From the NCBI GenBank assembly GCA_964549615.1, contig CAZJVP010000052.1, positions 1 through 55,502 of the forward strand: a DNA stretch of 55,502 bases, given 5' to 3'. This DNA comes from an uncultured Thermococci archaeon (GTDB lineage: Archaea > CAYQAE01 > CAYVLA01). Shown piece after piece: positions 532 through 38,634 of this stretch. A program made the position numbers and the translations under genes. Under the pieces are notes generated by a model. That model searched no databases and had not been told where the DNA came from. It was given only the letters and a program-made list of their open reading frames with translations. Within the stretch, counting starts at the first letter, position 1; each line of letters opens with the position of its first letter.

Positions 532-1770
532 CTAGCTCCCGACGCTTCTCGTGGCGGATACCGGACGGAACATCCTCCTCTTCACCATGAGCGACCAGAT
601 GACGACTCCAGAAAGGGCCGACGTCGAGGTCACGGTGAGCCACTCAACGAGATAGGCCCACGTCAGCGCCCGTTCCTTAAGTTCCACGGACTCCGCCTCG
701 ATTTCTAGGGCAAGGTCAAAAGCTTCTCTCATTTTGGATTCCACCAGGTCGAACTCATGCTCAAGATAGAGTTCGCCGGCCTCGCTGCCCATGAGCTGCA
801 AGCCCGCCAGCCTTTTCTCGACCCGCTGGGTGTTCGCTCCGAAGCTATCCGCAAACTCGATTATGTTGCCCACGAGAGTTATCCTCGAGCGGAGACGGAT
901 GAAGGAGTCACGCAGGATGTGAACCCTTATCGGATCATCGGGGAGATCCCAGCCCGAGCTAAGCCAGATGAACCCGGTGAAGATGTCCAGCGCATACCTT
1001 TCCTTCCCATCGTTTGTACGCCACATCGAGGTGTCAAACTGATCGGCGGTCACCCACACCAAGGCATTTCCCGGTCCATATCTCCAAGAGATGAATAGGG
1101 GGAACCTCGTCACGCCAGCTCCCAAGAACGCGTTCGTGTGGCAGTAAGCCCAGACCGTTGCACCGGGCCTCTCGAACGTGGGGCGCGCCTCCCCAAACGG
1201 TTTGATGTTCTCGATTCCGAGGGGGATGTAAGGCGTCATGAGCGGCGGGAGGTTGGGGTCTCTGACGATCTCTAGGTCGAACGGCTTATCCCCGGGAGCG
1301 CCCAGCTTGAGGTTCTTCGAGTGATCGTAGGGGAAGCAGTCGTAGAGCTGGGTTTCCAGCCACGGGCCGTAGATGTCCGCGTACTGGCTTTCCATGAAGC
1401 ACAGCGCGCCCCTGCCTCCTTCGGCAATTGCGAGGTAGATGTCCTGAAGCGAATTCGGGGGAAAATACCGCACGACGGGCTGGTTGATCAGGATGAAGTC
1501 GTACTCCAACATTCCCTCAAGATTCCTGGGCAGATAGAGACGGATGATCCGCTTCAGCCCCGCCTCCCCGTACGTCGTGGCGTGCATGTCTCTTGCCACG
1601 ACGAGGGTTGCGTCCAGAGAGGGCTCGGCCTGGCAATATCCCCATATGGGACAGTAACTTGTGTCGACCTCGCCCATCGCGAGGACTCGCATCAAGTGCG
1701 GCGGGGAGACCTGTTCGCCCTGCACGGCAGGGAAAAGGAGGCAAACCAAAATGAGGGCCAGCCTTGTCAC
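532..1770 (-). CDS. Uncharacterised secreted, C-terminally membrane-anchored protein (paralog 1 of 3; GATase1-like/DUF1355-like extracellular domain suspected)
   Basis: ORF 532..2007. The likely start is GTG at 1770, giving a signal peptide MTRLALILVCLLFPAVQG, with TTATA about 32 nt upstream. The C-terminal TM ALTWAYLVEWLTVT...WSLMVKRR is shared with 11387..12658 and 38704..39893. Confidence 0.8.
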   Translation of the reverse strand: MTRLALILVCLLFPAVQGEQVSPPHLMRVLAMGEVDTSYCPIWGYCQAEPSLDATLVVARDMHATTYGEAGLKRIIRLYLPRNLEGMLEYDFILINQPVVRYFPPNSLQDIYLAIAEGGRGALCFMESQYADIYGPWLETQLYDCFPYDHSKNLKLGAPGDKPFDLEIVRDPNLPPLMTPYIPLGIENIKPFGEARPTFERPGATVWAYCHTNAFLGAGVTRFPLFISWRYGPGNALVWVTADQFDTSMWRTNDGKERYALDIFTGFIWLSSGWDLPDDPIRVHILRDSFIRLRSRITLVGNIIEFADSFGANTQRVEKRLAGLQLMGSEAGELYLEHEFDLVESKMREAFDLALEIEAESVELKERALTWAYLVEWLTVTSTSALSGVVIWSLMVKRRMFRPVSATRSVGS

Positions 1771-1980
1771 GGAGTCGCCGTGTAACGCTTTGATGCCCCT
1801 GTATAAGTCGTTTTCTTTGAGCCGTGACCTGCAGCGAGGATCACCGGCCACGAGCTGTTGAGAAGAATGCCGGCACGGCGCTGACCCCGATATTGATGTC
1901 TCGGCAGTCAAGCTAACTGATCGGAGAATGCGGCGGCTGATGTGGCGCAAAGGGCAGCTAGGATGGCGCGGGACATCGTC

Positions 1981-2017
1981 CGATAAACTTAATAAGAACG
2001 ATGTCAAATGTATGACA
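1981..2017 (+). promoter_or_regulatory. BRE/TATA-like promoter plus TGTCA-N6-TGACA inverted repeat upstream of the RHH gene
   Basis: CGATAAAC-TTAATAAG at 1981-1996; perfect inverted repeat TGTCA (2002-2006) / TGACA (2013-2017). Confidence 0.5.
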
Positions 2018-2405: not shown

Positions 2406-2987
2406 ATGCAGGCAGGGACCCCTCAGGCGCCCATAAGTTCAAGATCCTACGGCCGCCCAGCCTTCCCGCAGCGCACCATCGTTGCGATCGAGGCCGGCAG
2501 GCCGCAGGGACCCGGTCTTCCCAAGAGAGAACTCGAGGCGCGCGACGATCTGATCCGCATTATCCGCGAAAACCGAGGCAGATCATCCGCTCTGATCAGT
2601 GTGCTCCACGATGTTCAGAACAGCCTTGGGCACATCCCGCTCTGGGCTCAGCTCACCGTATCCCAGGAAATGGGGATACCGTTCAGCACCGTCCACGGCG
2701 TTGTTACCTTCTACAACTTCTTCTCCCAACAGCCAAAGGGCAGGCACACGATCCAGATCTGCCAGGGGACAGCCTGTTACGTACGTGGGGGGAGAAGGAT
2801 CCTGCAGCAGCTGGCAAGGAGACTTGGCGTCCGGCCGGGTGAGACCACGAAAGACGGCAGCTTCTCTTTGGAGATCGTTCGCTGCCTAGGATGCTGCGGC
2901 CTTGCCCCCGTTATTTCAATCGACGGCAAGGTCTACCGTCGGATGAATCCCAAGAAGGCGGCGGAGATCCTAGAGGGTTACAACTAG
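2406..2987 (+). CDS. hoxE: NuoE/HoxE/HydC-like [2Fe-2S] subunit
   Basis: GVVTFYNFFS, ICQGTAC and CLGCC motifs of the NuoE family; GGAGG RBS. Confidence 0.92.
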   Translation: MQAGTPQAPISSRSYGRPAFPQRTIVAIEAGRPQGPGLPKRELEARDDLIRIIRENRGRSSALISVLHDVQNSLGHIPLWAQLTVSQEMGIPFSTVHGVVTFYNFFSQQPKGRHTIQICQGTACYVRGGRRILQQLARRLGVRPGETTKDGSFSLEIVRCLGCCGLAPVISIDGKVYRRMNPKKAAEILEGYN

Positions 2988-3015
2988 CCGCCGAATGGAA
3001 GCACAGGATGTCTGA

Positions 3016-6000
3016 ATGTTGAGAATCCCCAATGCGGAAGCCCTTTCAGATCTTGCGCGGGCATGCAAGGCGGAGGCAGACGCAAGGAAGGCCAGCCGCC
3101 AAGTTCTGGTTCACAACGGCACCTGTGGGATAGCCTCCGGCTCCAAGCTCGTCAGATCCTATCTGGACGAGCACCTCGGAGAGCAGGCAGGAATCGTGGT
3201 CCGCGACACGAGCTGTTGTGGGGCCTGTCACCAGGAGCCCATGATAACCGTGGTCGAAACCGATGGAACCCAGATCATCTACGGAGATCTGACGCGGGAA
3301 AAGCTTGCCAAGATCGTCAAGGAGCACCTAAGGGGCGGCCATCCGGTCCGAGAGCTGATGACCGACGGCTCGAATCCCTTCTTTCAGAAACAGGTCAAGA
3401 GGGTGACGAGGCTTCTTGGCGTCATAGACCCCTATGATATCAGGGACTACATCGCCCACGATGGCTATCAGGCGCTTGCAAAGGTCCTTTCCCTTCCAAG
3501 GGAGAAAGTTGTCGAGGAGGTCACCAGATCGGGGCTGAGGGGACGGGGCGGGGCGGGATTCCCGACCGGCCTGAAATGGTCCTTCGCGGCGAAAGCCCAG
3601 GGAAGTCCAAAATATGTGATCTGCAACGCCGATGAGGGGGATCCAGGCGCCTACATGGACAGGGCGATAGTCGAGGGATGCCCCCATTCCGTCATCGAGG
3701 GGCTATGCATAGCCGCCTACGCGATCGGCGCCAACAAGGGCTTTGTCTACATCCGGGCAGAGTATCCGCTGGCCGTCGAAGTCATCACCAACGCCATCGA
3801 CCAGGCCAGGGATTTGGGCCTATTCGGGGAGAACATACTGGGAAGCGGGTTCAACTTCGACATCGAGGTCTGTCTTGGAGCGGGCGCATTCGTCTGTGGC
3901 GAGGAAACGGCGCTCATCGCCTCCATAGAGGGCAAGAGAGGGAGCCCACGCCCGAGGCCTCCCTTCCCGGCCAACCAGGGCCTTTACGGCAAGCCCACGG
4001 TCATCAACAACGTGAAGACCCTCGCCAACATACCCCTCATATTCCTCCATGGTGCTGACTGGTTCGCAAGCCTTGGAACCGAAAAGAGCAAGGGCACCGT
4101 CATTTTCTCCCTCACAGGCAAGGTCAGAAGAAGCGGATTGATCGAGGTACCCCTGGGTACAACACTTGGGGAGGTCATCTTCGACATCGGAGGGGGAGTT
4201 TCGGCCGGGAAGCGGTTCAAGGCCGTCCAACTCGGGGGCCCCTCCGGTGGGTGCATCCCGGGCAAGTACCTGAACACGCCCATAGACTACGCCGACATCG
4301 AGGCGCTCGGGGCCATAATGGGCTCCGGCGGAATGATCGTGATGGACGAGGACTCCTGCATGCCGGATATGGCAAGGTTCTTCATGGAGTTCACGAAGGA
4401 CGAGTCGTGCGGCAAGTGCACTCCATGCAGGGCGGGCATCCCCCAGATGCTCGGGATCTTGGATAAGGTGACGAGTGGAAGGGCCGAGCTGGAGGACCTC
4501 CAAGTCCTAGAGGAGTTGGGCAAGATGGTGAAGGAGTGCTCCCTGTGCGGCTTGGGCCAAACTGCCCCAAACCCCGTCCTAAGCACCCTCCGCCACTTCA
4601 GGGACGAGTACGTGGCCCACATCATCGACTACAGATGTCCGGCCGCCGTTTGTCAGCCTCTCTTCACTGCCCCGTGCCAGCACGCATGCCCTCTGGGAAA
4701 CGACATACCCTCGATCATGGCGCTTGTCAAAGAGGGACGATACGAGGACGCCTATCTGCTGCTTCGGCAGCGCAACCCTCTGCCATCGGTTTGCGGAAGG
4801 GTCTGCGTTCGCTATTGCGAGGGGAAGTGTCGCCGGTCCCAGATCGATGAGCACCTATCCATAAACCACCTGCTGAGATTCGTGGCCGACTATGCCATCG
4901 AAAAGGGGATCGAATACGTCCCCGAGATCAAGGAGAAGAAGAAACAGAAAGTGGCGATCGTTGGTTCCGGCCCCGCCGGCCTGTCGGCGGCATACGACCT
5001 TGCCTTGAACGGATACGGCGTGACCGTCTTCGAAGCCACATCAAAGCCCGGGGGAATGATGGTCTGGGGCATACCGGCCTACCGCCTGCCCAGGGCCGCG
5101 CTCGAGGCCGACCTTAGGGTATTCCGCAGGATGGGGATTGAGATCAAGCTGAACAGCAGGGTGACCGATGTCGAGTCGCTCCTAAGACAGGGCTACGACG
5201 CGGTCTTCATTGCCAGCGGGCTGCCAAGGGGGCGCAAGATGGGCATCCCGGGAGAGGACCTCGATGGGGTATACGAGGGCGTTGATTTCCTCAGGAAGCT
5301 AAATGCGGGAGAGAAGCTCGAGGTAGGACAGAGAGTCGCAGTGGTGGGCGGGGGCAACGTTGCGGTCGACGCCGCCAGGGCAAGCTTGCGGCTAGGTGCC
5401 GAGAAGGTCTACATAGTCTACAGACGTGAAAGGGCGGACATGCCCGCAATAGCCGAGGAGATCGAGGCGGCCGAGGAGGAAGGCGTAGAGATAATGCCCC
5501 TCACCAATCCGCGCAGGATCATCGGTTCCAACGGGAGGGTTTCGGGCCTTGAGTGCGCCCAGATGTCCTTGAGCGGGTTCGATGATAGCTGCCGAAGGGT
5601 GCCGCACGAGGTCGAGGGCTCGCGAATACTGCTCGAGGTCGACACGGTGATCGAAGCCATCGGACAGGCTGCCGAGAACGACTTCCTCCAAGGCAAGGTC
5701 CTGACCGACAGACAGGGTTTGATCCTTGCGGATGAGAGAACACTGGAAACCAATGTTCCGGGGATCTTTGCGGGAGGCGATGTGGTCACCGGACCATCAA
5801 CCGTGGTCGAGGCGATAGCCGCGGGACAGAGGGGAGCCCATTCGGTGATGAGCTATCTCCGTAATCAGCCCATACCCAAGAGGGTTTCCAGGGAAATACC
5901 CCTCAAGATCGAAATCCCGCAGGGTGAGATCAAGGACGAGGTACCCGAAGAACGCCATGTGAAATGGGCGGTCTGCCCTGCCCGGGAGAGACGTTCCGAC

Positions 6001-6084
6001 TTCCGGGAGGTCGCCCATGGTTATACCGAGGCGCAGGCCCGCAGGGAAGCGTCGCGGTGCCTCAGGTGTGATCTCGAGGTGTGA
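3016..6084 (+). CDS. NuoF/HydB-like FMN/NAD(H) subunit fused to a GltD/NfnB-like FAD-dependent oxidoreductase
   Basis: N-terminal thioredoxin-like FeS domain. NuoF motifs: GLRGRGGAGFPTG, CNADEGDPG, GAGAFVCGEETAL, GGPSGGC, ESCGKCTPCR. GltD/NfnB motifs follow: PCQHACP...VCGRVC, GSGPAGL, WGIPAYRLP, GGGNVAVD..VYRR, GIFAGGD, EASRCLRC. Confidence 0.93.
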   Translation: MLRIPNAEALSDLARACKAEADARKASRQVLVHNGTCGIASGSKLVRSYLDEHLGEQAGIVVRDTSCCGACHQEPMITVVETDGTQIIYGDLTREKLAKIVKEHLRGGHPVRELMTDGSNPFFQKQVKRVTRLLGVIDPYDIRDYIAHDGYQALAKVLSLPREKVVEEVTRSGLRGRGGAGFPTGLKWSFAAKAQGSPKYVICNADEGDPGAYMDRAIVEGCPHSVIEGLCIAAYAIGANKGFVYIRAEYPLAVEVITNAIDQARDLGLFGENILGSGFNFDIEVCLGAGAFVCGEETALIASIEGKRGSPRPRPPFPANQGLYGKPTVINNVKTLANIPLIFLHGADWFASLGTEKSKGTVIFSLTGKVRRSGLIEVPLGTTLGEVIFDIGGGVSAGKRFKAVQLGGPSGGCIPGKYLNTPIDYADIEALGAIMGSGGMIVMDEDSCMPDMARFFMEFTKDESCGKCTPCRAGIPQMLGILDKVTSGRAELEDLQVLEELGKMVKECSLCGLGQTAPNPVLSTLRHFRDEYVAHIIDYRCPAAVCQPLFTAPCQHACPLGNDIPSIMALVKEGRYEDAYLLLRQRNPLPSVCGRVCVRYCEGKCRRSQIDEHLSINHLLRFVADYAIEKGIEYVPEIKEKKKQKVAIVGSGPAGLSAAYDLALNGYGVTVFEATSKPGGMMVWGIPAYRLPRAALEADLRVFRRMGIEIKLNSRVTDVESLLRQGYDAVFIASGLPRGRKMGIPGEDLDGVYEGVDFLRKLNAGEKLEVGQRVAVVGGGNVAVDAARASLRLGAEKVYIVYRRERADMPAIAEEIEAAEEEGVEIMPLTNPRRIIGSNGRVSGLECAQMSLSGFDDSCRRVPHEVEGSRILLEVDTVIEAIGQAAENDFLQGKVLTDRQGLILADERTLETNVPGIFAGGDVVTGPSTVVEAIAAGQRGAHSVMSYLRNQPIPKRVSREIPLKIEIPQGEIKDEVPEERHVKWAVCPARERRSDFREVAHGYTEAQARREASRCLRCDLEV

Positions 6085-6087
6085 AGC

Positions 6088-8070
6088 GTGTCCGGGGACG
6101 AGTTTACCGCCATCGTCGACGGAAGGCCTGTAAAGGGCACCAAGGGAGCCACCATACTCGAGCTCTGTAGGGCCAACGACATCTACATCCCCACGTTGTG
6201 CCACTTGGACGGCCTTTCGGGGAACGGGGGATGCCGGATGTGCCTGGTCGATGTGGAAGGCCAGAGGAGGCCGGTTCCCGCATGTATGACCCTGGCGGCC
6301 GAGGGCATGAAGATCGTGACCAACAGCCCGCAGCTGACAAGCTACCGGCGCATGGTCCTCGAGCTTCTCCTGAGTGAGCGTAACCACTTCTGTTTCTTCT
6401 GCGAGAAGAGCGGGGACTGCGAGCTTCAGTCCCTCTGCTACGAGTTCGGCATAGACCACCCGAGGTTTCCGGGGATGTTCCCTCCCCTAGGCCTTGACGC
6501 GACCGCCGAGGCCCTGGCAATAGACAACAACAGGTGCATCCTGTGCGGCAGGTGTGTCCGGGTATGCAACGAGATCGTGGGCAACAATACCCTAGACTTC
6601 GCAAGGCGCGGGTCAAACACGGTCATAAACGAGCCCGACCTCCTTCCTCTCGGTCAGTCCAACTGCATCCAGTGCGGTGCATGCGTCGAGGTTTGCCCGA
6701 CGGGGGCCATCTTCGGGAAGCTGAGCAGCTACAGGGGTAGAAAGGCACAGTGCATGGTGCTAAGGACCACATGTTGCGAGTGCCCGATGGCCTGCGACCT
6801 GACTGTCCATGTGCGCGACAATAACATCGTCATGATCACGGGCGGCGGGCTGCAGTCGCGGTTTGGGGGGCAGCTCTGCAAGAGGGGCCGGTTCGATCTG
6901 CTGTCCCGCAGCTACGACAGGATAGTTGCACCACGTATCGTTAGAGGCAATTCCCAGATCAAGGCCGACCTGCCTGAAGCCTTAGCCACGGCATCCAGGC
7001 TACTGCGCGAGGTCCAACGCAGGCATGGCAAGGACAGCGTGGCGGGGATCATATCGCCGCGATGCACAAACGAGGCAATCATGGCCTTCAAGGAGTTCGT
7101 CGAGAAGACGCTGAGGACCAAGAACGTGTTCATCATCGAGTCCGCATTCGGGGTCTTGAGCGACAGGATCTTGAAGGCGATGGAGAAAGAAGGTCTAGGT
7201 CGATTCTCCGAGTGCAGGACGGCAGAGCTTGCCCAAGCGGACTTGATCGTGGCGATCGGACTTGGACGGTCGGAGCCGCATCCCATCATCGCATCCAACG
7301 TAAGAAGGGCCCTCAACAAAGGCGCCCATCTGATAATCGTCGCGGGTTCAGAGAACGTCCTGTCCGCGCGCGCCAGCCTGATGATAAGCGCGGATGAGGG
7401 CAGGCTCGCACCAGTCGTGAAGACTCTGGCCAGCCTCGTCGGCGCGGCTGCCAGGGGGGACGAGCGATCCATTCAGGATACCATGCGAAAATCGTCGGAT
7501 CTCCAGCATGAGGAGATGTCCGCGTTCCTGACATACGTTCGCGGGGCGAAGAAGGTCGTGACCATCGCAGGCGGGGAGATCGAGCCCGATCCCGCCGTCC
7601 TCAAGGCCGTCGCCCTCCTGGCCGCGGCCCTGGCCAAGGCCGACAATGGACCGGTGCCCGCCATCTTCCTTCGATCAGGGGGAAATGCCAGGGGCGCCCT
7701 TGACCTACTCGGCGAGGATCTCAGAAGCCTCCCCACCGATCTTGGGAAGTTCGGCATCCGGGCGGCGTACATGTTGCTTTCCGACGAAGATCCTGGGACT
7801 GTTGATCGGATCGATCTTGCGGGGTTGGAGGCCATCGTCACCCAAGCGTCCTTCGAGTCGGATCTTACCAGCAGAGCCGACGTCGTCATCCCATCCAGGA
7901 CCTGGGCGGAGAGATCCGGCACCATGACCGACATCGATGGGGAAGTGAGGAAGATCAGCCAAGTCCTCGTCCCGCCCGATGGGGTCCGCTCGGACGAGGA
8001 GATCATCCACGAGCTGGCGCGACGCTGGGCGCAGGGTGCGCCGGACGAAAGCAAGGGAGGGATTGCTTGA
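6088..8070 (+). CDS. NuoG/HoxU/HydA-like multi-FeS subunit with a degenerate molybdopterin-oxidoreductase domain
   Basis: [2Fe-2S] (IPTLC...GGCRMC...C), NHFCFFC..C, two ferredoxin motifs (CILCGRCVRVC, CIQCGACVEVCP) and CCECPMAC...LCKRG. No FDH catalytic Cys/Sec-His motif, no H-cluster motifs and no C-terminal MGD-binding domain. Confidence 0.88.
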   Translation: MSGDEFTAIVDGRPVKGTKGATILELCRANDIYIPTLCHLDGLSGNGGCRMCLVDVEGQRRPVPACMTLAAEGMKIVTNSPQLTSYRRMVLELLLSERNHFCFFCEKSGDCELQSLCYEFGIDHPRFPGMFPPLGLDATAEALAIDNNRCILCGRCVRVCNEIVGNNTLDFARRGSNTVINEPDLLPLGQSNCIQCGACVEVCPTGAIFGKLSSYRGRKAQCMVLRTTCCECPMACDLTVHVRDNNIVMITGGGLQSRFGGQLCKRGRFDLLSRSYDRIVAPRIVRGNSQIKADLPEALATASRLLREVQRRHGKDSVAGIISPRCTNEAIMAFKEFVEKTLRTKNVFIIESAFGVLSDRILKAMEKEGLGRFSECRTAELAQADLIVAIGLGRSEPHPIIASNVRRALNKGAHLIIVAGSENVLSARASLMISADEGRLAPVVKTLASLVGAAARGDERSIQDTMRKSSDLQHEEMSAFLTYVRGAKKVVTIAGGEIEPDPAVLKAVALLAAALAKADNGPVPAIFLRSGGNARGALDLLGEDLRSLPTDLGKFGIRAAYMLLSDEDPGTVDRIDLAGLEAIVTQASFESDLTSRADVVIPSRTWAERSGTMTDIDGEVRKISQVLVPPDGVRSDEEIIHELARRWAQGAPDESKGGIA

Positions 8071-8633
8071 ACAAGGTCAGGATCGCCACCGCATGGTTAT
8101 CGGGCTGCTCGGGCTGCCACATGTCATTCCTGAACATCGACGAGGCGCTGATGGAGGTTGCGAGCAAGGTCGAGTTCGTCAGAAGCCCCCTCGTCGACGC
8201 AAAAGAGTTCAGGCCCTGCGAGGTGGCCATCGTAGAGGGCGCGGTCTCGGACACGGACAACCTCGAAACGCTAAAGTCGCTCAGAGCAAACTGCAAGATC
8301 CTCGTGGCATTGGGAGACTGCGCCGTGTTCGGAGGGATGACCTCGATGAGAAACCTCTTCGACGCCGAGGACGTCCTGAAGCGCGGATACGTCGAGACCG
8401 AGACAACCAAGGACGGGTTCGTGCCAGTGGACCCTCCCGTCCCCAGGCTTCTGGAGCAAGCGACACCGCTAAGCGCCCATGTGAAGGTCGACGTCAACAT
8501 ACCGGGATGCCCTCCCCACCCGGAGTCGATCCTGCATGTGGTCACACGCCTTCTTGAGGGAAAGGATCCCAAGCTTCCTCGGGAGCTGCTGCACTTCGAT
8601 TCCAGAATCAAGGTCAGGAGCGATGGCAAATGA
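8067..8633 (+). CDS. hoxY: [NiFe]-hydrogenase small subunit (group 3d/HoxY-like)
   Basis: WLSGCSGCHMS, VEG, GDCA and PGCPP motifs; short single-cluster form (188 aa). Confidence 0.92.
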   Translation: MNKVRIATAWLSGCSGCHMSFLNIDEALMEVASKVEFVRSPLVDAKEFRPCEVAIVEGAVSDTDNLETLKSLRANCKILVALGDCAVFGGMTSMRNLFDAEDVLKRGYVETETTKDGFVPVDPPVPRLLEQATPLSAHVKVDVNIPGCPPHPESILHVVTRLLEGKDPKLPRELLHFDSRIKVRSDGK

Positions 8634-10054
8634 CCGCAAGGGAGATCGTCATAGACCCAGTTACGCGGGTCGAGGGGCACGGCAAGATCACACTCCAGCT
8701 CGACGAGAAGGGCAATGTGTCAACTGCCAGGTTCCATGTGACGCAGTTCAGAGGATTCGAGAAGTTCTGCGAGGGGCGGCTTTTCTGGGAGATGCCCTCG
8801 ATAATGCCGAGGATTTGTGGGATCTGCAGCATAAGCCATGGCCTTGCATCCGCCAAGGCGTGCGACGCTATACTGGGGATTGAGATAACCGAGACCGCCA
8901 GGAAGCTGAGGGAACTCTTGCAGGCCGGCGAACTGATACAGTCCCATGCCCTACATTTCTTCTACCTGGCGGCTCCCGACCTGCTCTTCGGCATGGATGC
9001 CGACCCGCAGCACAGAAACGTTCTTCGCGTGATCGACGAGCGTCCCGACCTTGCCAGGATGGGGATAGGACTGAGGAGGTTCGGCCAGACCATATTCGAG
9101 AGGTTGAGCGGAGCCAGGATACACATCGACTACCCAATTCCCGGAGGAGTTAGCGGGGCCTTGAGCGCAAAGGATCGTGACTATCTGCTGGCCCACGTCA
9201 GGGAGCAGCTGGGGGCAGCGCAGACCGGCTTGGACCTTGCTCGGGATTACATTGAGAAAGGAGGCATAGAGGTAGAACGGTTCTCCAAGTTCCCGTCAAA
9301 GTATATGGGGCTTGTCGACGAAGAAGGAAACCTCGAGGTCTACGACGGGAGCCTCCGGCTCAAGTCCGCTGATGGCGAGGTGTTGGAGGAGGTTCCCTCA
9401 CAACGGTACGCTTCCATCATCAGCGAAGGAGTCGAGAGCTGGTCATACCTGAAATTCCCCTACTACTCGAAGGAGTCCTTTGCGGGCGGGATGTACAGGG
9501 TCGGCCCATTGGGCCGGCTGAACGTCTGCGACGGGATCGATACCCCCCTTGCAAAGGAGGCTGCCAAGGAGTTTAAACGCGTCGGCGGCAGCCGGCCAGT
9601 CCACTCGACAATGTTCTACCACTGGGCAAGGATGATCGAGCTGCTGCACTTCGTGGAGAAAGCCCAGCAGATCCTGGAGGATGAATCGATCTGCAGCACC
9701 GACATCGTCCGATCGTGCCATCCCCAGAACACCGAGGGAGTTGGGGTCACCGAGGCTCCCAGGGGTACCCTGATACATCACTACTACACCAACGAGAAGG
9801 GGGTGATCACCCGCGTCAACCTGATCGTTGCGACGGGCCACAACAACCTTGCCATGAACAGGTCATTGACGGAGGTGGCCAAGCAACACGTTCACGGAGG
9901 CAAGATCTCCGAGGGAACCCTCAACAGGTTCGAAGCGGCGATCCGCTGCTACGATCCCTGCCTTTCGTGCTCGACCCACACAGTGGGTCAGATGCCTCTA
10001 GTCGTTGAGGTCATGTCCGCCGATGGCGAGCTGGTTGGGACGTACTGCAGGTAG
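8630..10054 (+). CDS. hoxH: [NiFe]-hydrogenase large subunit (group 3d/HoxH-like)
   Basis: TRVEGHG, L1 RICGICSISH, EAPRGTLIHHY and L2 YDPCLSCSTH followed by a C-terminal extension. Confidence 0.95.
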   Translation: MTAREIVIDPVTRVEGHGKITLQLDEKGNVSTARFHVTQFRGFEKFCEGRLFWEMPSIMPRICGICSISHGLASAKACDAILGIEITETARKLRELLQAGELIQSHALHFFYLAAPDLLFGMDADPQHRNVLRVIDERPDLARMGIGLRRFGQTIFERLSGARIHIDYPIPGGVSGALSAKDRDYLLAHVREQLGAAQTGLDLARDYIEKGGIEVERFSKFPSKYMGLVDEEGNLEVYDGSLRLKSADGEVLEEVPSQRYASIISEGVESWSYLKFPYYSKESFAGGMYRVGPLGRLNVCDGIDTPLAKEAAKEFKRVGGSRPVHSTMFYHWARMIELLHFVEKAQQILEDESICSTDIVRSCHPQNTEGVGVTEAPRGTLIHHYYTNEKGVITRVNLIVATGHNNLAMNRSLTEVAKQHVHGGKISEGTLNRFEAAIRCYDPCLSCSTHTVGQMPLVVEVMSADGELVGTYCR

Positions 10055-10437: not shown

Positions 10438-11253
10438 CTAGCCTCCGAGCACGGCCTTGCTCCTGGATGTCGTTAGGGGCATGTCCTCCGCACGGCCCGA
10501 CAGCACGGAACGCACCAGCTGCAGGTCCTCCTCCACCTCTTGGACGCTGGAGAAACCCAACGCCAGCGGGTCAGTGGGCTTGACGGCCCGCAGGGCGAAT
10601 GGCAGGCCGATCTCGGGCGTCACGCGCCCAGCCGCCATGGTCTTGATCGTGATCACGGGCTTGGAACTATTACAGATGATCCTCTGAACCCATTCGACCT
10701 CAAACGGACAGAGAAAGCCGATTGGGTTCAGCGGCAGGATGTAGGCTTCCACATCCTTCCCCGCTCGATCCATCGTCACGATGGTCTCGGGTCTATGGGT
10801 GCTCAGACCGGGTATCATGCCGAGGGATCGTATCTTCTCGGCGATGCGGTCATAACCCAGAAGGTCGTTCTGCGCGGGAAGGAGATTGTTGTCCGTGTAC
10901 ATCTGGTGCGGCATACAGATTTCCACATCGTGGTCTCGGCACCAGACGGCCCCCTGCATAACCTCTTCTGCGTTGTTCCCTCCCGGGGTGCATATCCAGT
11001 GCATCTCCAGCCCCTCGGCCCGCAGGTCGCGAAGGATGGCGTGAAGTCGATCCTGAATCCCGCTTACGACGGCGTTCACGCCAAGTTCGCATGCCCTGCC
11101 CATGATCTCCTTGATCCTGTCGTCCGTGAAGTACTGCTTCATCCACAGGTCGCGTGCCCTAGTGAAGTGGGAGAACCCGAAGAAAGGGTTCGTGCCGCAT
11201 ATGACCTTCGAGATCGCGAGGCCGCCAATCTGAACCGTCGGAAGGCCGCGCAT
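10438..11253 (-). CDS. Aldo/keto-reductase-like TIM-barrel hypothetical protein
   Basis: ISKVICGTNPFFGFSH N-terminus, PGLSTH and KPVITIKTMAAGR resemble AKR-fold proteins. Confidence 0.6.
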   Translation of the reverse strand: MRGLPTVQIGGLAISKVICGTNPFFGFSHFTRARDLWMKQYFTDDRIKEIMGRACELGVNAVVSGIQDRLHAILRDLRAEGLEMHWICTPGGNNAEEVMQGAVWCRDHDVEICMPHQMYTDNNLLPAQNDLLGYDRIAEKIRSLGMIPGLSTHRPETIVTMDRAGKDVEAYILPLNPIGFLCPFEVEWVQRIICNSSKPVITIKTMAAGRVTPEIGLPFALRAVKPTDPLALGFSSVQEVEEDLQLVRSVLSGRAEDMPLTTSRSKAVLGG

Positions 11254-11386: not shown

Positions 11387-12658
11387 TTGAGAGCGGCCAT
11401 CACCTTCACGGCCATCGTTGCCACCTTTGCGCTCCTGATGAGCGCAGGCCCAGCGCATTCACAAGACCTGATAAGCATAATCGCCATGGGGCAGGTGGGA
11501 CCCAAGGACTGCCCGCTCCACACCTGGTTCTCGGCCGTCCCCGACATCGACTACATTCTGGTCGTGACCAAACAGGACGTTGTGGTCATGACCGCGGAGG
11601 AGATGCAGCGATGGATACGCATCTACTTTCCCAGAAACAGGGAACAGTTGGTCAGCAAGTACGACCTCTACATCTTCATCGATTCGTGGCTCACCGGCTG
11701 GGACAGCTCGGTCCCCCTTCTCACCCCCAAGCAGGTGGACGATATCAAGTGGTCGGTCGGCGAGGCTGGGATGCCGATCTACGCGACCGGAATATGGAGT
11801 TCCGAAACCACGATGGTGAAGGGGATCCTGGCCTCAACCATGGAGGAGTACTACCCTGTCGATCTGACCAAACCAAGGCAGATGGACTCCAAGTACGTGT
11901 ACAAGGTCAGGCTCAGCCGGAACCCAGACCTCCCGCCGGTCCTTACGCCCTTCCTCCCCCTCGGCATTGAGAAGTTTCAGGGACAGTGGGTGGGCCAGCT
12001 GTACCCCAAAGAGGGCACCACGGTATGGGCCACGCTCTACGAAACGAACATACCCAACCCGCCCCCGGGCGGATGGCCCTGGCTGGTCTCGTGGAGGGTC
12101 GGATCAAAGCAGACCATCTTCTGGGTTGCTGCCGACGACATGGAGGTGAAGTGGTGGTACGGCTTCTACCATCCGCCGACCCAGAATCCCTACGGCGTGG
12201 ACATCCTATGCAACATCATCTACTACTCCCTTGGAAAGCCGCTTCCGGAGGACATCCTCATGCTCCACGACCTCCGCAGGCGATTCCTCGAGTTCAATGA
12301 CAGAAAGGCGGTGAGCATTGGTCTGATCGAATTCGCTGAAAGGTTCAAAGCAAACACCGCCTCCCTCTGGAGGGACGTGGAGGCTGCAAACGAGCTGCAG
12401 AAGCGGGCCAGTGAAGCTTACCTCGTTCACGAGTTCTCCGACTCCCAGCAGTACATCTCACAAGGCGAGGAGGCCTTGATCAAGGTCGGCCAAAGAGCCC
12501 TCAAGCTGAAGGATGCGGCTCTGCTTTGGGTTTACGTGATCGAATGGTTGGCGGTGACGGCGGTTGGCATGGTCGCTGGTTCCATCCTTTGGACCCTCAT
12601 GATCAAGAGGCGCCTTTACCGGGAGGTCGCGGCAACACGGGCAAGAGGTCTTCGCTGA
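11387..12658 (+). CDS. Uncharacterised secreted, membrane-anchored protein (paralog 2 of 3)
   Basis: Signal peptide MRAAITFTAIVATFALLMSAGPAHS; RIYFPR, LPPVLTPFLPLGIE and LPEDI blocks; C-terminal TM ALLWVYVIEWLAVTA...WTLMIKRRLY. Confidence 0.85.
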   Translation: MRAAITFTAIVATFALLMSAGPAHSQDLISIIAMGQVGPKDCPLHTWFSAVPDIDYILVVTKQDVVVMTAEEMQRWIRIYFPRNREQLVSKYDLYIFIDSWLTGWDSSVPLLTPKQVDDIKWSVGEAGMPIYATGIWSSETTMVKGILASTMEEYYPVDLTKPRQMDSKYVYKVRLSRNPDLPPVLTPFLPLGIEKFQGQWVGQLYPKEGTTVWATLYETNIPNPPPGGWPWLVSWRVGSKQTIFWVAADDMEVKWWYGFYHPPTQNPYGVDILCNIIYYSLGKPLPEDILMLHDLRRRFLEFNDRKAVSIGLIEFAERFKANTASLWRDVEAANELQKRASEAYLVHEFSDSQQYISQGEEALIKVGQRALKLKDAALLWVYVIEWLAVTAVGMVAGSILWTLMIKRRLYREVAATRARGLR

Positions 12659-37827: not shown

Positions 37828-38555
37828 GGGAAGTCACGGTCCTGGAGAAGATATATCGGAATGCCAAGCAGGCCAAGGCAAGCTTGGCCAGGATGGTGAA
37901 CGAGCTATTGGAACTCGATGCCACCGTGGCATTCGTCTCGAAGGGGGCAAGAGAGTGGGCCACGATCGGTCTCGAGGGGCCAGACGAGGAGGTGGCGGCG
38001 AAGTACGTCGCTTCCCGGCTGGGCACTGTGGCGAGGCTGGAGGAGTTGGCCGAAGGGCAAATCCGCAGGGGAAAGATCATCGACATCGGGAAGGTGGGCT
38101 ACGGCATCTACGTTGACGTCGGGGCTTTTGACTCAAGCGGCTCGCCTGTGGATGCACTGATTCCGGCATTCTCCCTCAAGAGAAGCCTCGGGGTGCAGGG
38201 AAACATCGGCGTCAAACGCATCGCCAGCCTTCTGGGACTCATGGACTATCTGCCGCTAAACACCAGGATCGTGAAGGTCGATCTTGGCGCATCGGAGATC
38301 ATGGGAAGGCTCACGGTCGCGCAGGCCCGGCACCTGGAGCGCAGGGGCAACAGGTTCTACGTTTGCGGGGAGACGAGGGGAAGAATTAAAAACGCGATCG
38401 AGAGAACCGGAAACACGGCCAGGATCCTGAGGGTGAAGAGGCTCGGTCTCCTGGAATGCGAGGTTGAGTGCCGCAAAGGCGTAAAGCCGCAAGAGGTGCT
38501 TCGCCAGATCGGCCCGATGCTCAACGCCAAGGTGACCGTTCCCAGGGGCCTGTAG
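37824..38555 (+). CDS. DUF2110 family protein
   Basis: VTVLEKIY, G.DEEVA and GKVGYGIYVDVG; the usual archaeal neighbour of tfe. Confidence 0.75.
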   Translation: MREVTVLEKIYRNAKQAKASLARMVNELLELDATVAFVSKGAREWATIGLEGPDEEVAAKYVASRLGTVARLEELAEGQIRRGKIIDIGKVGYGIYVDVGAFDSSGSPVDALIPAFSLKRSLGVQGNIGVKRIASLLGLMDYLPLNTRIVKVDLGASEIMGRLTVAQARHLERRGNRFYVCGETRGRIKNAIERTGNTARILRVKRLGLLECEVECRKGVKPQEVLRQIGPMLNAKVTVPRGL

Positions 38556-38634
38556 TGTAGCTTGGATTCCGAGGGGCCAGCCAGCACAGCACCCTGCGGA
38601 GGTGCACACCCGGGTTCAAATCCCGGCAGGCCCA
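38546..38634 (+). tRNA. tRNA-Arg(GCG) with a 15-nt intron in the D-loop (38568-38582)
   Basis: Acceptor GGGCCTG/CAGGCCC, anticodon arm GCACC-CTGCGGA-GGTGC and T arm CCGGG-TTCAAAT-CCCGG. Removing the BHB intron restores the D arm GTGT-AGCTTGGATA-GCAC. CCA is not encoded. Confidence 0.92.

Follow-up and report, generated by a model that had tools for sequence, protein, structure and literature searches.

A predicted archaeal [NiFe] hydrogenase whose NuoF-type subunit carries a GltD-like module at the site of the ferredoxin-like domain

We analyzed a stretch of 55,502 nucleotides from an uncultured archaeon (assembly GCA_964549615.1, contig CAZJVP010000052.1), hereafter called the window, which carries an operon predicted to encode a soluble five-subunit [NiFe] hydrogenase of the HydABCSL, or 'NiFe-Bfu', build. 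Its HydB subunit is fused to a GltD/NfnL-type module that, as judged by residue-level alignment, replaces the 2x[4Fe-4S] ferredoxin-like domain (clusters B3 and B4) directly after the hinge residue Cys546. The fusion itself is real, conserved and mechanistically open. It is not a first sighting, since the [FeFe] form is in print: Zheng and Huang (2024; PMC11406978) described a fused BfuB in silico among the [FeFe] hydrogenases of Hydrogenedentota. What is new here is the archaeal NiFe occurrence, together with a sister genus whose operon copy has lost the module. A full-text literature search, with subscription journals and supplements outside its scope, found no NuoF/HydB-GltD fusion with a [NiFe] hydrogenase, no archaeal form and no biochemistry. 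According to the article of Zheng and Huang, flavin adenine dinucleotide (FAD) and flavin mononucleotide (FMN)-FeS centers have never been reported together in one BfuABC hydrogenase (PMC11406978). In all Bfu-type bifurcating enzymes characterized so far, ferredoxin is the low-potential partner. Should this family use NADP(H) in its place, or alongside it, the balance of the NADH, NADPH and H2 pools would have to be rethought in anaerobes of the subsurface and of hot springs, Dehalococcoidia and Hadarchaeota among them.

The operon and its fused subunit

Five co-directional open reading frames occupy positions 2406-10054 of the + strand, separated by gaps of 28 and 3 nucleotides and then by two overlaps of 4 nucleotides each. 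An earlier note, made from the sequence alone, had described a tight operon of NuoE-like, NuoF+GltD, NuoG/HydA-like, small and large subunit genes, and all of its reading frames, domains, positions and gene order were reproduced here. The genes, followed by the parts of the fused subunit, are:

2406..2987, + strand: hydC/bfuC, NuoE-like subunit of 193 residues with a thioredoxin-like [2Fe-2S] domain (C1 cluster); PF01257 2Fe-2S_thioredx, 166.9 bits
3016..6084, + strand: hydB::gltD fusion of 1022 residues, a single reading frame for an NADH/FMN flavoprotein (BfuB) plus a GltD/NfnL-like FAD/NADPH module
6088..8070, + strand: hydA/bfuA, NuoG-like iron-sulfur scaffold of 660 residues, assigned by Pfam, PDB 7t2r_A and Cys positions
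8067..8633, + strand: hydS, [NiFe] small subunit of 188 residues with one proximal [4Fe-4S] cluster (C14, C17, C85, C148)
8630..10054, + strand: hydL, [NiFe] large subunit of 474 residues; Pfam NiFeSe_Hases, RICGIC (C63, C66) and DPCLSCSTH (C444, C447)
3100..3360, + strand: thioredoxin-like domain at the N-terminus of the fusion, with Cys37, 67, 68 and 71, aligning with the N-terminal domains of 9bov_B, 8oh5_B and 9n5u_B
3427..4623, + strand: NuoF core, residues 138-536; TIGR01959, 495.8 bits
4618..4653, + strand: hinge 'B2' site with His535, Cys541 and Cys546, plus Cys448 at 4357-4359
4654..6081, + strand: GltD/NfnL-like module, residues 547-1022, with two [4Fe-4S] clusters, the FAD motif GSGPAG (650) and the NADPH motifs GGGNVA (778) and YRR (802)

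HydL and HydS are predicted to form the H2 site. HydL ends in a 24-residue extension after DPCLSCSTH, of the type cut off by a maturation protease, and HydS matched Pfam Oxidored_q6 with 108.5 bits and the NCBIfam VhuG, FrhG and HydD models below cut-off. Pfam assigned Fer2_4, NADH-G_4Fe-4S_3, Fer4 and Molybdop_Fe4S4 domains and a weak Molybdopterin domain to HydA, which contains Cys sets for five clusters: a [2Fe-2S], a His/Cys3 [4Fe-4S], two ferredoxin-type [4Fe-4S] and one of Molybdop_Fe4S4 type. No H-cluster, Fe_hyd_lg_C or Molydop_binding domain was found in HydA by Pfam, and its molybdopterin-fold domain is degenerate; HydA is predicted to be a catalytically empty, NuoG-like iron-sulfur wire. 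HydC, which matched the NCBIfam HoxE/NuoE models below cut-off, has Cys119, Cys124, Cys160 and Cys164, all invariant among 32 aligned NuoE-like sequences. Together with the N-terminal half of HydB, it would form the BfuBC core.

The NuoF part of the fusion was recognized by Pfam as Complex1_51K (163.1 bits), SLBB and NADH_4Fe-4S (114.2 bits). An A-F-M triad, a single Phe and GGPSG have been described as the flavin-pocket motifs of BfuB, and a Glu as the residue for NADH selectivity (PMC12018979). The FMN/NADH motifs in the core are A212-Y-M214, in which Tyr replaces Phe, F292, E297 and GGPSGG (407-412), with E297 as the predicted selectivity Glu, and the ligands of the N3-type [4Fe-4S] cluster are C465, C468, C471 and C511. 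The 'B2' hinge, a His and three Cys that follow a four-helix bundle, is likewise described as a conserved Bfu feature (PMC12018979). Its residues C448, H535, C541 and C546 align with those of 7t2r_B, 9n5u_B, 9bov_B, 8oh5_B and 7q4w_B (pattern EYVAHIxDxRCPAxxC).

Homology to HydB, NfnB and StnB runs to ...EYVAHIIDYRCPAAVC, and from ...APCQHACP onwards the chain aligns as a GltD module, with seven residues between the hinge Cys546 and the first GltD cluster ligand, Cys554. Residues 30-552 scored 668.7 bits against T. sibiricus NfnB (9n5u_B) and 665.1 bits against Acetomicrobium mobile HydB (7t2r_B). Residues 552-1019 matched the GltD modules of NfnA (9n5u_A, 393.7 bits), 9bov_A (389.9 bits) and StnA (8oh5_C), and the module scored 365.9 bits against T. 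maritima NfnB (4ylf_B) and 310.4 bits against P. furiosus NfnL. Neither Pfam nor the alignment placed a Fer4-type domain after the hinge, where Fer4_20 (86 bits) and Pyr_redox_2 (132.9 bits) were found instead; PRK12771 spans residues 506-1018. The cluster ligands of the module are C554, C558, C593, C597, C601 and C605, plus C1015 and C1018 at the C-terminus. In the earlier note, the GltD unit begins at the point where HydB usually continues into its 2x[4Fe-4S] domain, and the alignment switch right after the hinge upholds exactly this position. The motifs that it named were also all recovered from the translation, with GGPSGG at residue 407, MDEDSC at 443, EYVAHI at 531, CPAAVC at 541, GSGPAG at 650, GGGNVA at 778 and YRR at 802.

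These features are strongly conserved. In an alignment of 72 fused relatives, C448, H535, C541, C546, A212, M214 and F292 were present in all 72 and E297 in 71. Cys 554, 558, 597, 601 and 605 of the GltD module were likewise found in every sequence, and YRR in all 70 that are ungapped there. Four of 27 frames labeled as unfused carry T, K and Y at the positions of A212, M214 and F292. The fusion is one open frame, and its recurrence in independent assemblies (the related genome G002, 119 other full-length clusters and 52 of 80 metagenome loci) rules out an assembly artifact. The GltD half matched the fold of NfnL chains with template modeling (TM) scores of 0.78-0.80 and root-mean-square deviations of 2.2-2.3 Å. 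The AlphaFold2 model of the whole fusion, built from a 16-row alignment, was poor (predicted local distance difference test score 71.2, predicted TM score 0.56). Good folding was limited to its GltD half, so that the fold search restates what the sequence had already shown and carries no information on inter-domain geometry.

Host, distribution and loss of the module in a sister genus

The NuoF::GltD subunit belongs to a large, mostly bacterial family. In a word-indexed protein search, the best 119 matches besides the query covered at least 96% of it, were 988-1054 residues long and shared 54-86% identity; all ten organism-named entries among them were from Dehalococcoidia or Chloroflexi. A query with the junction (residues 500-640) against 1.84 billion cluster representatives returned 56 proteins at E <= 1e-30, and in a metagenome scan 593 of 595 candidate stretches encoded relatives. 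The closest full-length relatives in named genomes are from two metagenome-assembled genomes of Candidatus Hadarchaeota archaeon, with 70% and 66% identity. The view in the earlier note that this operon is the best candidate for a new system could not be kept, as fused B subunits of this kind abound in bacteria and the [FeFe] fusion was published in 2024 (PMC11406978).

Catalytic partners were counted in the best 80 metagenome loci, of which 52 have a fusion reaching residue 1005 or further. Downstream of the fusion we found the following (number of loci):

[FeFe] HydA: 10
[NiFe] small and large subunits: 7
small Fe-S protein plus GltB-FMN-domain protein: 6
HoxU-like gene only: 5
formate-dehydrogenase-like: 4
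MetV/MetF: 3
HdrA/MvhD-like: 3
cytochrome b: 1
cut by contig end: 9
no partner or no room: 4

Two of the seven [NiFe] loci have a long HydA and four a short HoxU-like subunit; the seventh breaks off where the small subunit begins. Given this variety of downstream partners, NuoE plus NuoF::GltD is a general module and not peculiar to the operon in the window, and its retention with so many catalytic partners points to selection on the module as a unit. In six loci (L098, L107, L109, L112, L133 and L138), NuoE and NuoF::GltD are followed by a small [2Fe-2S]/Fe-S protein and then by a protein of about 526 residues with only a glutamate-synthase FMN domain, an uncharacterized Bfu-like complex.

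The archaeal origin of the window, already assumed in the earlier note, was borne out by its marker genes. The contig encodes the proteasome alpha and beta subunits, TFE, aIF6, S19e, prefoldin alpha, Trm56 and archaeal GlmM, all above curated cut-offs, and the small-subunit rRNA fragment of the genome scored 676 bits with the archaeal model versus 524.1 bits with the bacterial one. A bacterial contaminant contig in the bin was ruled out by the archaeal markers on the same contig and by the presence of the same operon in two related assemblies. The genus label of the host is Candidatus Hadarchaeota, and its genome (3.21 Mb in 104 contigs) has a completeness of 99.46% and a contamination of 2.81%. 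A search of sequencing runs located host DNA in three hot-spring metagenomes, one of which may be its source, and no RNA dataset with host sequence.

We placed the fusion from the window in a FastTree phylogeny of 99 NuoF cores (residues 120-546). Of these, 72 come from fused and 27 from unfused proteins, four of the unfused frames being cut by a contig end and hence ambiguous. The fusion falls into a clade of eight (support 0.994) with the protein of G002, both copies of G004 and four other proteins. This clade is sister to the fusions named as Chloroflexi or Dehalococcoidia (joint support 0.999), and both are nested among metagenome loci. The rest of the tree mixes fused, unfused and NiFe-linked forms. 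The relatives of HydL, after the top matches, are Dehalococcoidia/Chloroflexi proteins named 'Ni/Fe hydrogenase subunit alpha' with about 57% identity, and the longest contigs of ten HydL matches are equal in length to those of fusion matches (127,689; 258,111; 24,023; 35,111; 41,651; 9,461; 14,239; 115,500; 18,444; and 19,436), which is indirect evidence that the NiFe and fusion pairing is common in Chloroflexota. The whole operon has likely been transferred between Chloroflexota-like bacteria and the archaeal lineage. The direction is not proven, and the archaeal occurrence is probably due to transfer from the bacteria.

Five genomes of the phylum were compared: the source genome G000, G002 of the same genus, G004 of a sister genus in the same family, and G001 and G003. 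The fused gene stands in the operon in G000 and G002; G001 and G003 have only stand-alone GltD-like genes. In the operon copy of G004 (G004:C1, L179 7695-9377), HydB is 560 residues long. Its frame stops with ...RHFRQEYVDLIRSG..., just short of the His/Cys hinge, and overlaps with the beginning of hydA; the remaining four genes are intact. This truncated protein nests in the fused clade on a long branch (0.292), which identifies it as a secondary loss of the module. An ancestral unfused state was ruled out by this nesting and by the abrupt end before the hinge. A full-length fusion with 66% identity is present in G004 as well, on a different contig and with neither NuoE nor HydA as neighbor (L012 5821-8895). 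The archaeal operon offers a natural comparison, with a sister genus that lost the module from its operon copy and keeps a separate fused gene. A heliorhodopsin gene (PF18761, 331 bits) and a gene of the Staygreen family are encoded on the opposite strand about 1.3 kb downstream of this orphan fusion (L012 10223-11541).

The source genome encodes three [NiFe] large subunits, namely HydL in the window, one in a four-gene group-3b-like Shy/Hyd set (C3) and one of the Complex1_49kDa type (group 4; C104), as well as the maturation proteins HycI protease and HypD. Also encoded is a canonical NfnAB pair, which exceeded the cut-off of TIGR01316 with 630 bits. On another contig (G000:C18; L182 4555-6003 and 5996-8455), a protein with an HdrC-like N-terminal domain and a GltD part lies directly upstream of HdrA2 with its MvhD domain, and both follow Mtd and Ftr, genes of the methanopterin pathway. 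Here the genome links a GltD module to a bifurcation-type flavoprotein for a second time. NfnAB and the HdrC-GltD protein next to HdrA2 indicate that the organism uses ferredoxin elsewhere.

Near the operon, the reading frames at 532-2007 (- strand), 10438-11253 (- strand) and 11387-12658 (+ strand) matched no Pfam or NCBIfam family at the thresholds used. A ferritin-like gene lies 3' of the hydrogenase operon in G002 (L180 14870-15454) and G004 (L179 13470-13958), and not in the window. Further along the window, an 89-nucleotide element at 38546-38634 (+ strand) matched the Rfam tRNA model with 54.1 bits and was not called by ARAGORN; its extra length suggests an intron-bearing archaeal tRNA.

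Predicted electron flow and its alternatives

We tentatively favor a mechanism, with a little less than an even chance of being right, in which H2 would be coupled to NAD(H) as well as NADP(H), the latter on the former ferredoxin branch. The earlier note had raised such a coupling, possibly without free ferredoxin, which is a reasonable hypothesis. Electrons from H2 would enter at HydL, cross HydS and the clusters of HydA and arrive at the FMN/[4Fe-4S]/[2Fe-2S] center of HydBC, whose high-potential branch would reduce NAD+ at FMN. The other branch, which usually leaves by way of the swinging [2Fe-2S] domain of HydC to B3/B4 and ferredoxin, would here lead to the two GltD clusters, FAD and NADP+. 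The net reversible reaction would be 2 H2 + NAD+ + NADP+ = NADH + NADPH + 2 H+. We prefer this mechanism because the module sits where B3/B4 does and because the hinge and the swinging HydC domain are conserved. It is further supported by the nearest solved relatives of the GltD module, all of which use NADPH at this flavin.

Physiological potentials have been given as -280 mV for NAD and -380 mV for NADP (Schut et al., 2022, Table 1). From these, our own Nernst estimate for 25°C, which is not the result of a tool, puts the balance of coupled NAD+/NADP+ reduction near 1.5 x 10^2 Pa H2, whereas the separate reactions would balance near 3 Pa (NAD) and 7 kPa (NADP). With its balance at this intermediate pressure, coupling would permit the re-oxidation of NADH to H2, or an H2-driven supply of NADPH, beyond the range of either single reaction. 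If the proposal is true, this archaeal hydrogenase would form both nucleotides, NADH and NADPH, at once from H2, or oxidize the two to release H2, and would be a compact H2-to-NADPH catalyst. By extension, NuoE and NuoF::GltD could constitute a distinct, ferredoxin-independent Bfu class that splits or joins electron pairs between the pools of NAD(H) and NADP(H), with NADP(H) replacing ferredoxin on the gated low-potential branch, a possibility that we regard as somewhat doubtful. If so, many uncultured anaerobes would run [FeFe] hydrogenases, formate dehydrogenases, MetVF and GltB-like enzymes on this one core.

Several points weigh against NADP(H) as the low-potential partner. The path of the electrons is entirely inferred, and the poor model of the fusion provides no cofactor geometry. 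NADP(H) lies only about 100 mV below NAD(H), which makes the energetic gain small. With a group-3b-like NAD(P) hydrogenase, NfnAB and a group-4 hydrogenase in the genome, a ferredoxin-free route to NADPH is not obviously needed, and the G004 operon, whose HydB lost hinge and module, shows that the hydrogenase core can exist without them. The missing domain alone does not exclude ferredoxin, which may bind the core elsewhere, since Synechocystis HoxEFUYH has no ferredoxin-like domain and, in the findings available from a 2026 preprint, still bifurcates to ferredoxin and is inactive with NADPH. In NfnABC and StnABC, moreover, the homologous GltD module is described as a mid-potential entry port and not as a low-potential exit (PMC12018979).

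The last two points fit a hybrid of NiFe-Bfu and Nfn-Bfu enzymes, in which the GltD module would be a second mid-potential port, ferredoxin would dock as the low-potential partner on the surface of the HydBC core, and H2 and NADPH would both feed, or be fed from, the same FMN center. The GltD half is indeed most similar to the NADPH entry modules NfnA and 9bov_A and shares with them a permuted RCLxC topology, H2 and NADPH are both listed as mid-potential donors (Schut et al., 2022, Table 1), and the genome has the ferredoxin-linked enzymes NfnAB, HdrA2 and group-4 hydrogenase. However, the module is attached to HydB exactly at the low-potential exit site and not within HydA as in NfnA and StnA, the operon contains no ferredoxin gene, and the ferredoxin site proposed for Hox has itself not been located, as far as the preprint describes it. 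We consider the hybrid rather unlikely.

The intact remainder of the G004 operon, which keeps everything except hinge and module, also speaks for a non-bifurcating, dual-nucleotide hydrogenase. Here, FMN/NAD(H) and FAD/NADP(H) would be independent ports on one iron-sulfur wire, acting as a transhydrogenase with no obligatory coupling. HydAB(C) enzymes that lack B3/B4 are described as non-bifurcating, NADH-dependent hydrogenases (PMC7311640, PMC11406978), in keeping with such a function. Yet every one of the 72 fused relatives keeps the Cys3His hinge and the bifurcation-type motifs unchanged, and a wire between NADH and NADPH would presumably dissipate the disequilibrium between the two pools, which leaves this explanation with a low probability.

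The close match of the module to NfnL chains (TM 0.80 and the score noted above for 4ylf_B) raises the question of a second bifurcation center, in which the GltD FAD would act like the bifurcating L-FAD of NfnSL beside the FMN-FeS site. This idea is in print for the [FeFe] form (Zheng and Huang, 2024; PMC11406978). NfnL needs the [2Fe-2S]/FAD partner NfnS for its high-potential branch, however, and the operon encodes none; the NfnS of the genome lies elsewhere with its own NfnL. The homologous FAD in NfnABC is moreover described as a plain NADPH entry site (Schut et al., 2022; PMC12018979), and we judge two centers to be very unlikely. Finally, the module might serve another substrate, such as polysulfide, reported as a substrate of SudA-type proteins, or pass electrons to an unlinked partner. 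GltD-like modules do serve many enzymes, and the fused subunit adjoins GltB-like, MetVF and HdrA-like genes in other loci and is an orphan in G004. Against this stand the NADPH-type GGGxxA...YRR motif, invariant in 70 of 70 relatives, and the binding of NADPH by all close solved relatives, so that a different substrate seems highly improbable. Coupling of H2 to NAD(H) and NADP(H) remains our preferred reading.

Comparison with known systems

The Bfu family is defined in part by features found here, namely a NuoE-like subunit, the FMN/NADH motifs and the Cys3His hinge; the C-terminal CX2CX2CX3CP pair (B3 and B4) is absent. Schut et al. (2022) selected their BfuB set by a domain architecture that includes IPR017896, so that without the ferredoxin-like domain the BfuB-like protein lacks one defining feature of the family in the sense of their selection. 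Uncharacterized archaeal NiFe-Bfu enzymes have been predicted in Halorhabdus (Schut et al., 2022). In the portions of two papers on Hadarchaeota cultures that were accessible, the hydrogenases mentioned are Mvh, FrhB, sulfhydrogenase and F420-reducing enzymes.

With NfnSL of T. maritima and P. furiosus (PDB 4YLF, 5JCA), the module has the GltD-like fold in common, and likewise the pair of [4Fe-4S] clusters, the FAD and the site for NADPH. Unlike NfnSL, the operon has no NfnS partner, and a separate NfnAB is encoded elsewhere in the genome. Like group 3d HoxEFUYH, the predicted enzyme would be soluble and NAD-linked, combining a [NiFe] hydrogenase with a diaphorase of the NuoE/NuoF/NuoG type, and would have no ferredoxin-like domain on the F/B subunit. 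The kinship of HydL was judged by relative PDB scores, and the Hox large subunit of H. thermoluteolus HoxFUYH (5XF9; 5xf9_D) was its second-best match with 417.5 bits, after A. mobile (7t2r_D, 539.6 bits) and before MvhA (5odc_F, 385.8 bits). HoxU is short (242 residues, 5XF9_B) versus the 660 residues of HydA here, however, and HoxF stops after the region of the N3 cluster and has no GltD module, whereas the B subunit here extends to 1022 residues.

NfnABC and StnABC (PDB 9N5U, 9BOV, 8OH5) share the BfuBC core, NfnB being the top-scoring match given above, and contain the closest solved relative of the GltD module. The RCLxC element (...RCLRCD) has a permuted, C-terminal position here and in NfnA and StnA, whereas it precedes PCxxxCP in T. 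maritima NfnB. Unlike here, their GltD module interrupts the A subunit, where it separates the [2Fe-2S] from the NuoG-like part, their B subunit keeps the ferredoxin-like domain, and they have no hydrogenase. HydA of the window passes from [2Fe-2S] straight into the NuoG-like clusters with no GltD insertion by Pfam and PDB alignment.

The operon is akin, as the earlier note had anticipated, to A. mobile NiFe-HydABCSL (PDB 7T2R/7T30), described as 'Type 3 NiFe-Bfu' (Feng et al., 2022; PMC8880783). It provided the best or near-best PDB matches of four subunits, among them HydL, HydB and HydA, the last with 338.8 bits over residues 5-646 versus 3-661 of 7t2r_A. Both systems have the same five subunits, with a [NiFe] pair that is probably of group 3 here, and a long, catalytically empty NuoG-like HydA with clusters A1-A5. 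Unlike A. mobile HydB with its C-terminal 2x[4Fe-4S] ferredoxin-like domain, the fusion carries the GltD module, and the host here is archaeal. The two also differ at the hinge, where the extra Cys476 that makes the B2 [2Fe-2S] of A. mobile HydB penta-coordinated aligns with Thr486. Of the 72 fused relatives, 40 have T at this position, 14 have C, 11 have S and 7 have some other residue. By the rule set out in PMC12018979, Thr486 in place of a fifth Cys suggests a Zn hinge, as in [FeFe] HydB and NfnB.

The fused subunit itself resembles the sub-type I BfuB of group A3 [FeFe] hydrogenases, in which B3/B4 are described as replaced by DPD_II, with two [4Fe-4S] clusters, and an FAD/NAD(P) domain (PMC11406978). 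The two domains by which that sub-type is recognized, Fer4_20 (the DPD domain II family) and Pyr_redox_2, both follow the hinge here. The NiFe form is not described in the text of that article. In sub-type I BfuABC the partner is an [FeFe] BfuA; here, by contrast, it is predicted to be a [NiFe] HydSL mounted on a long HydA without H-cluster, in an archaeal host.

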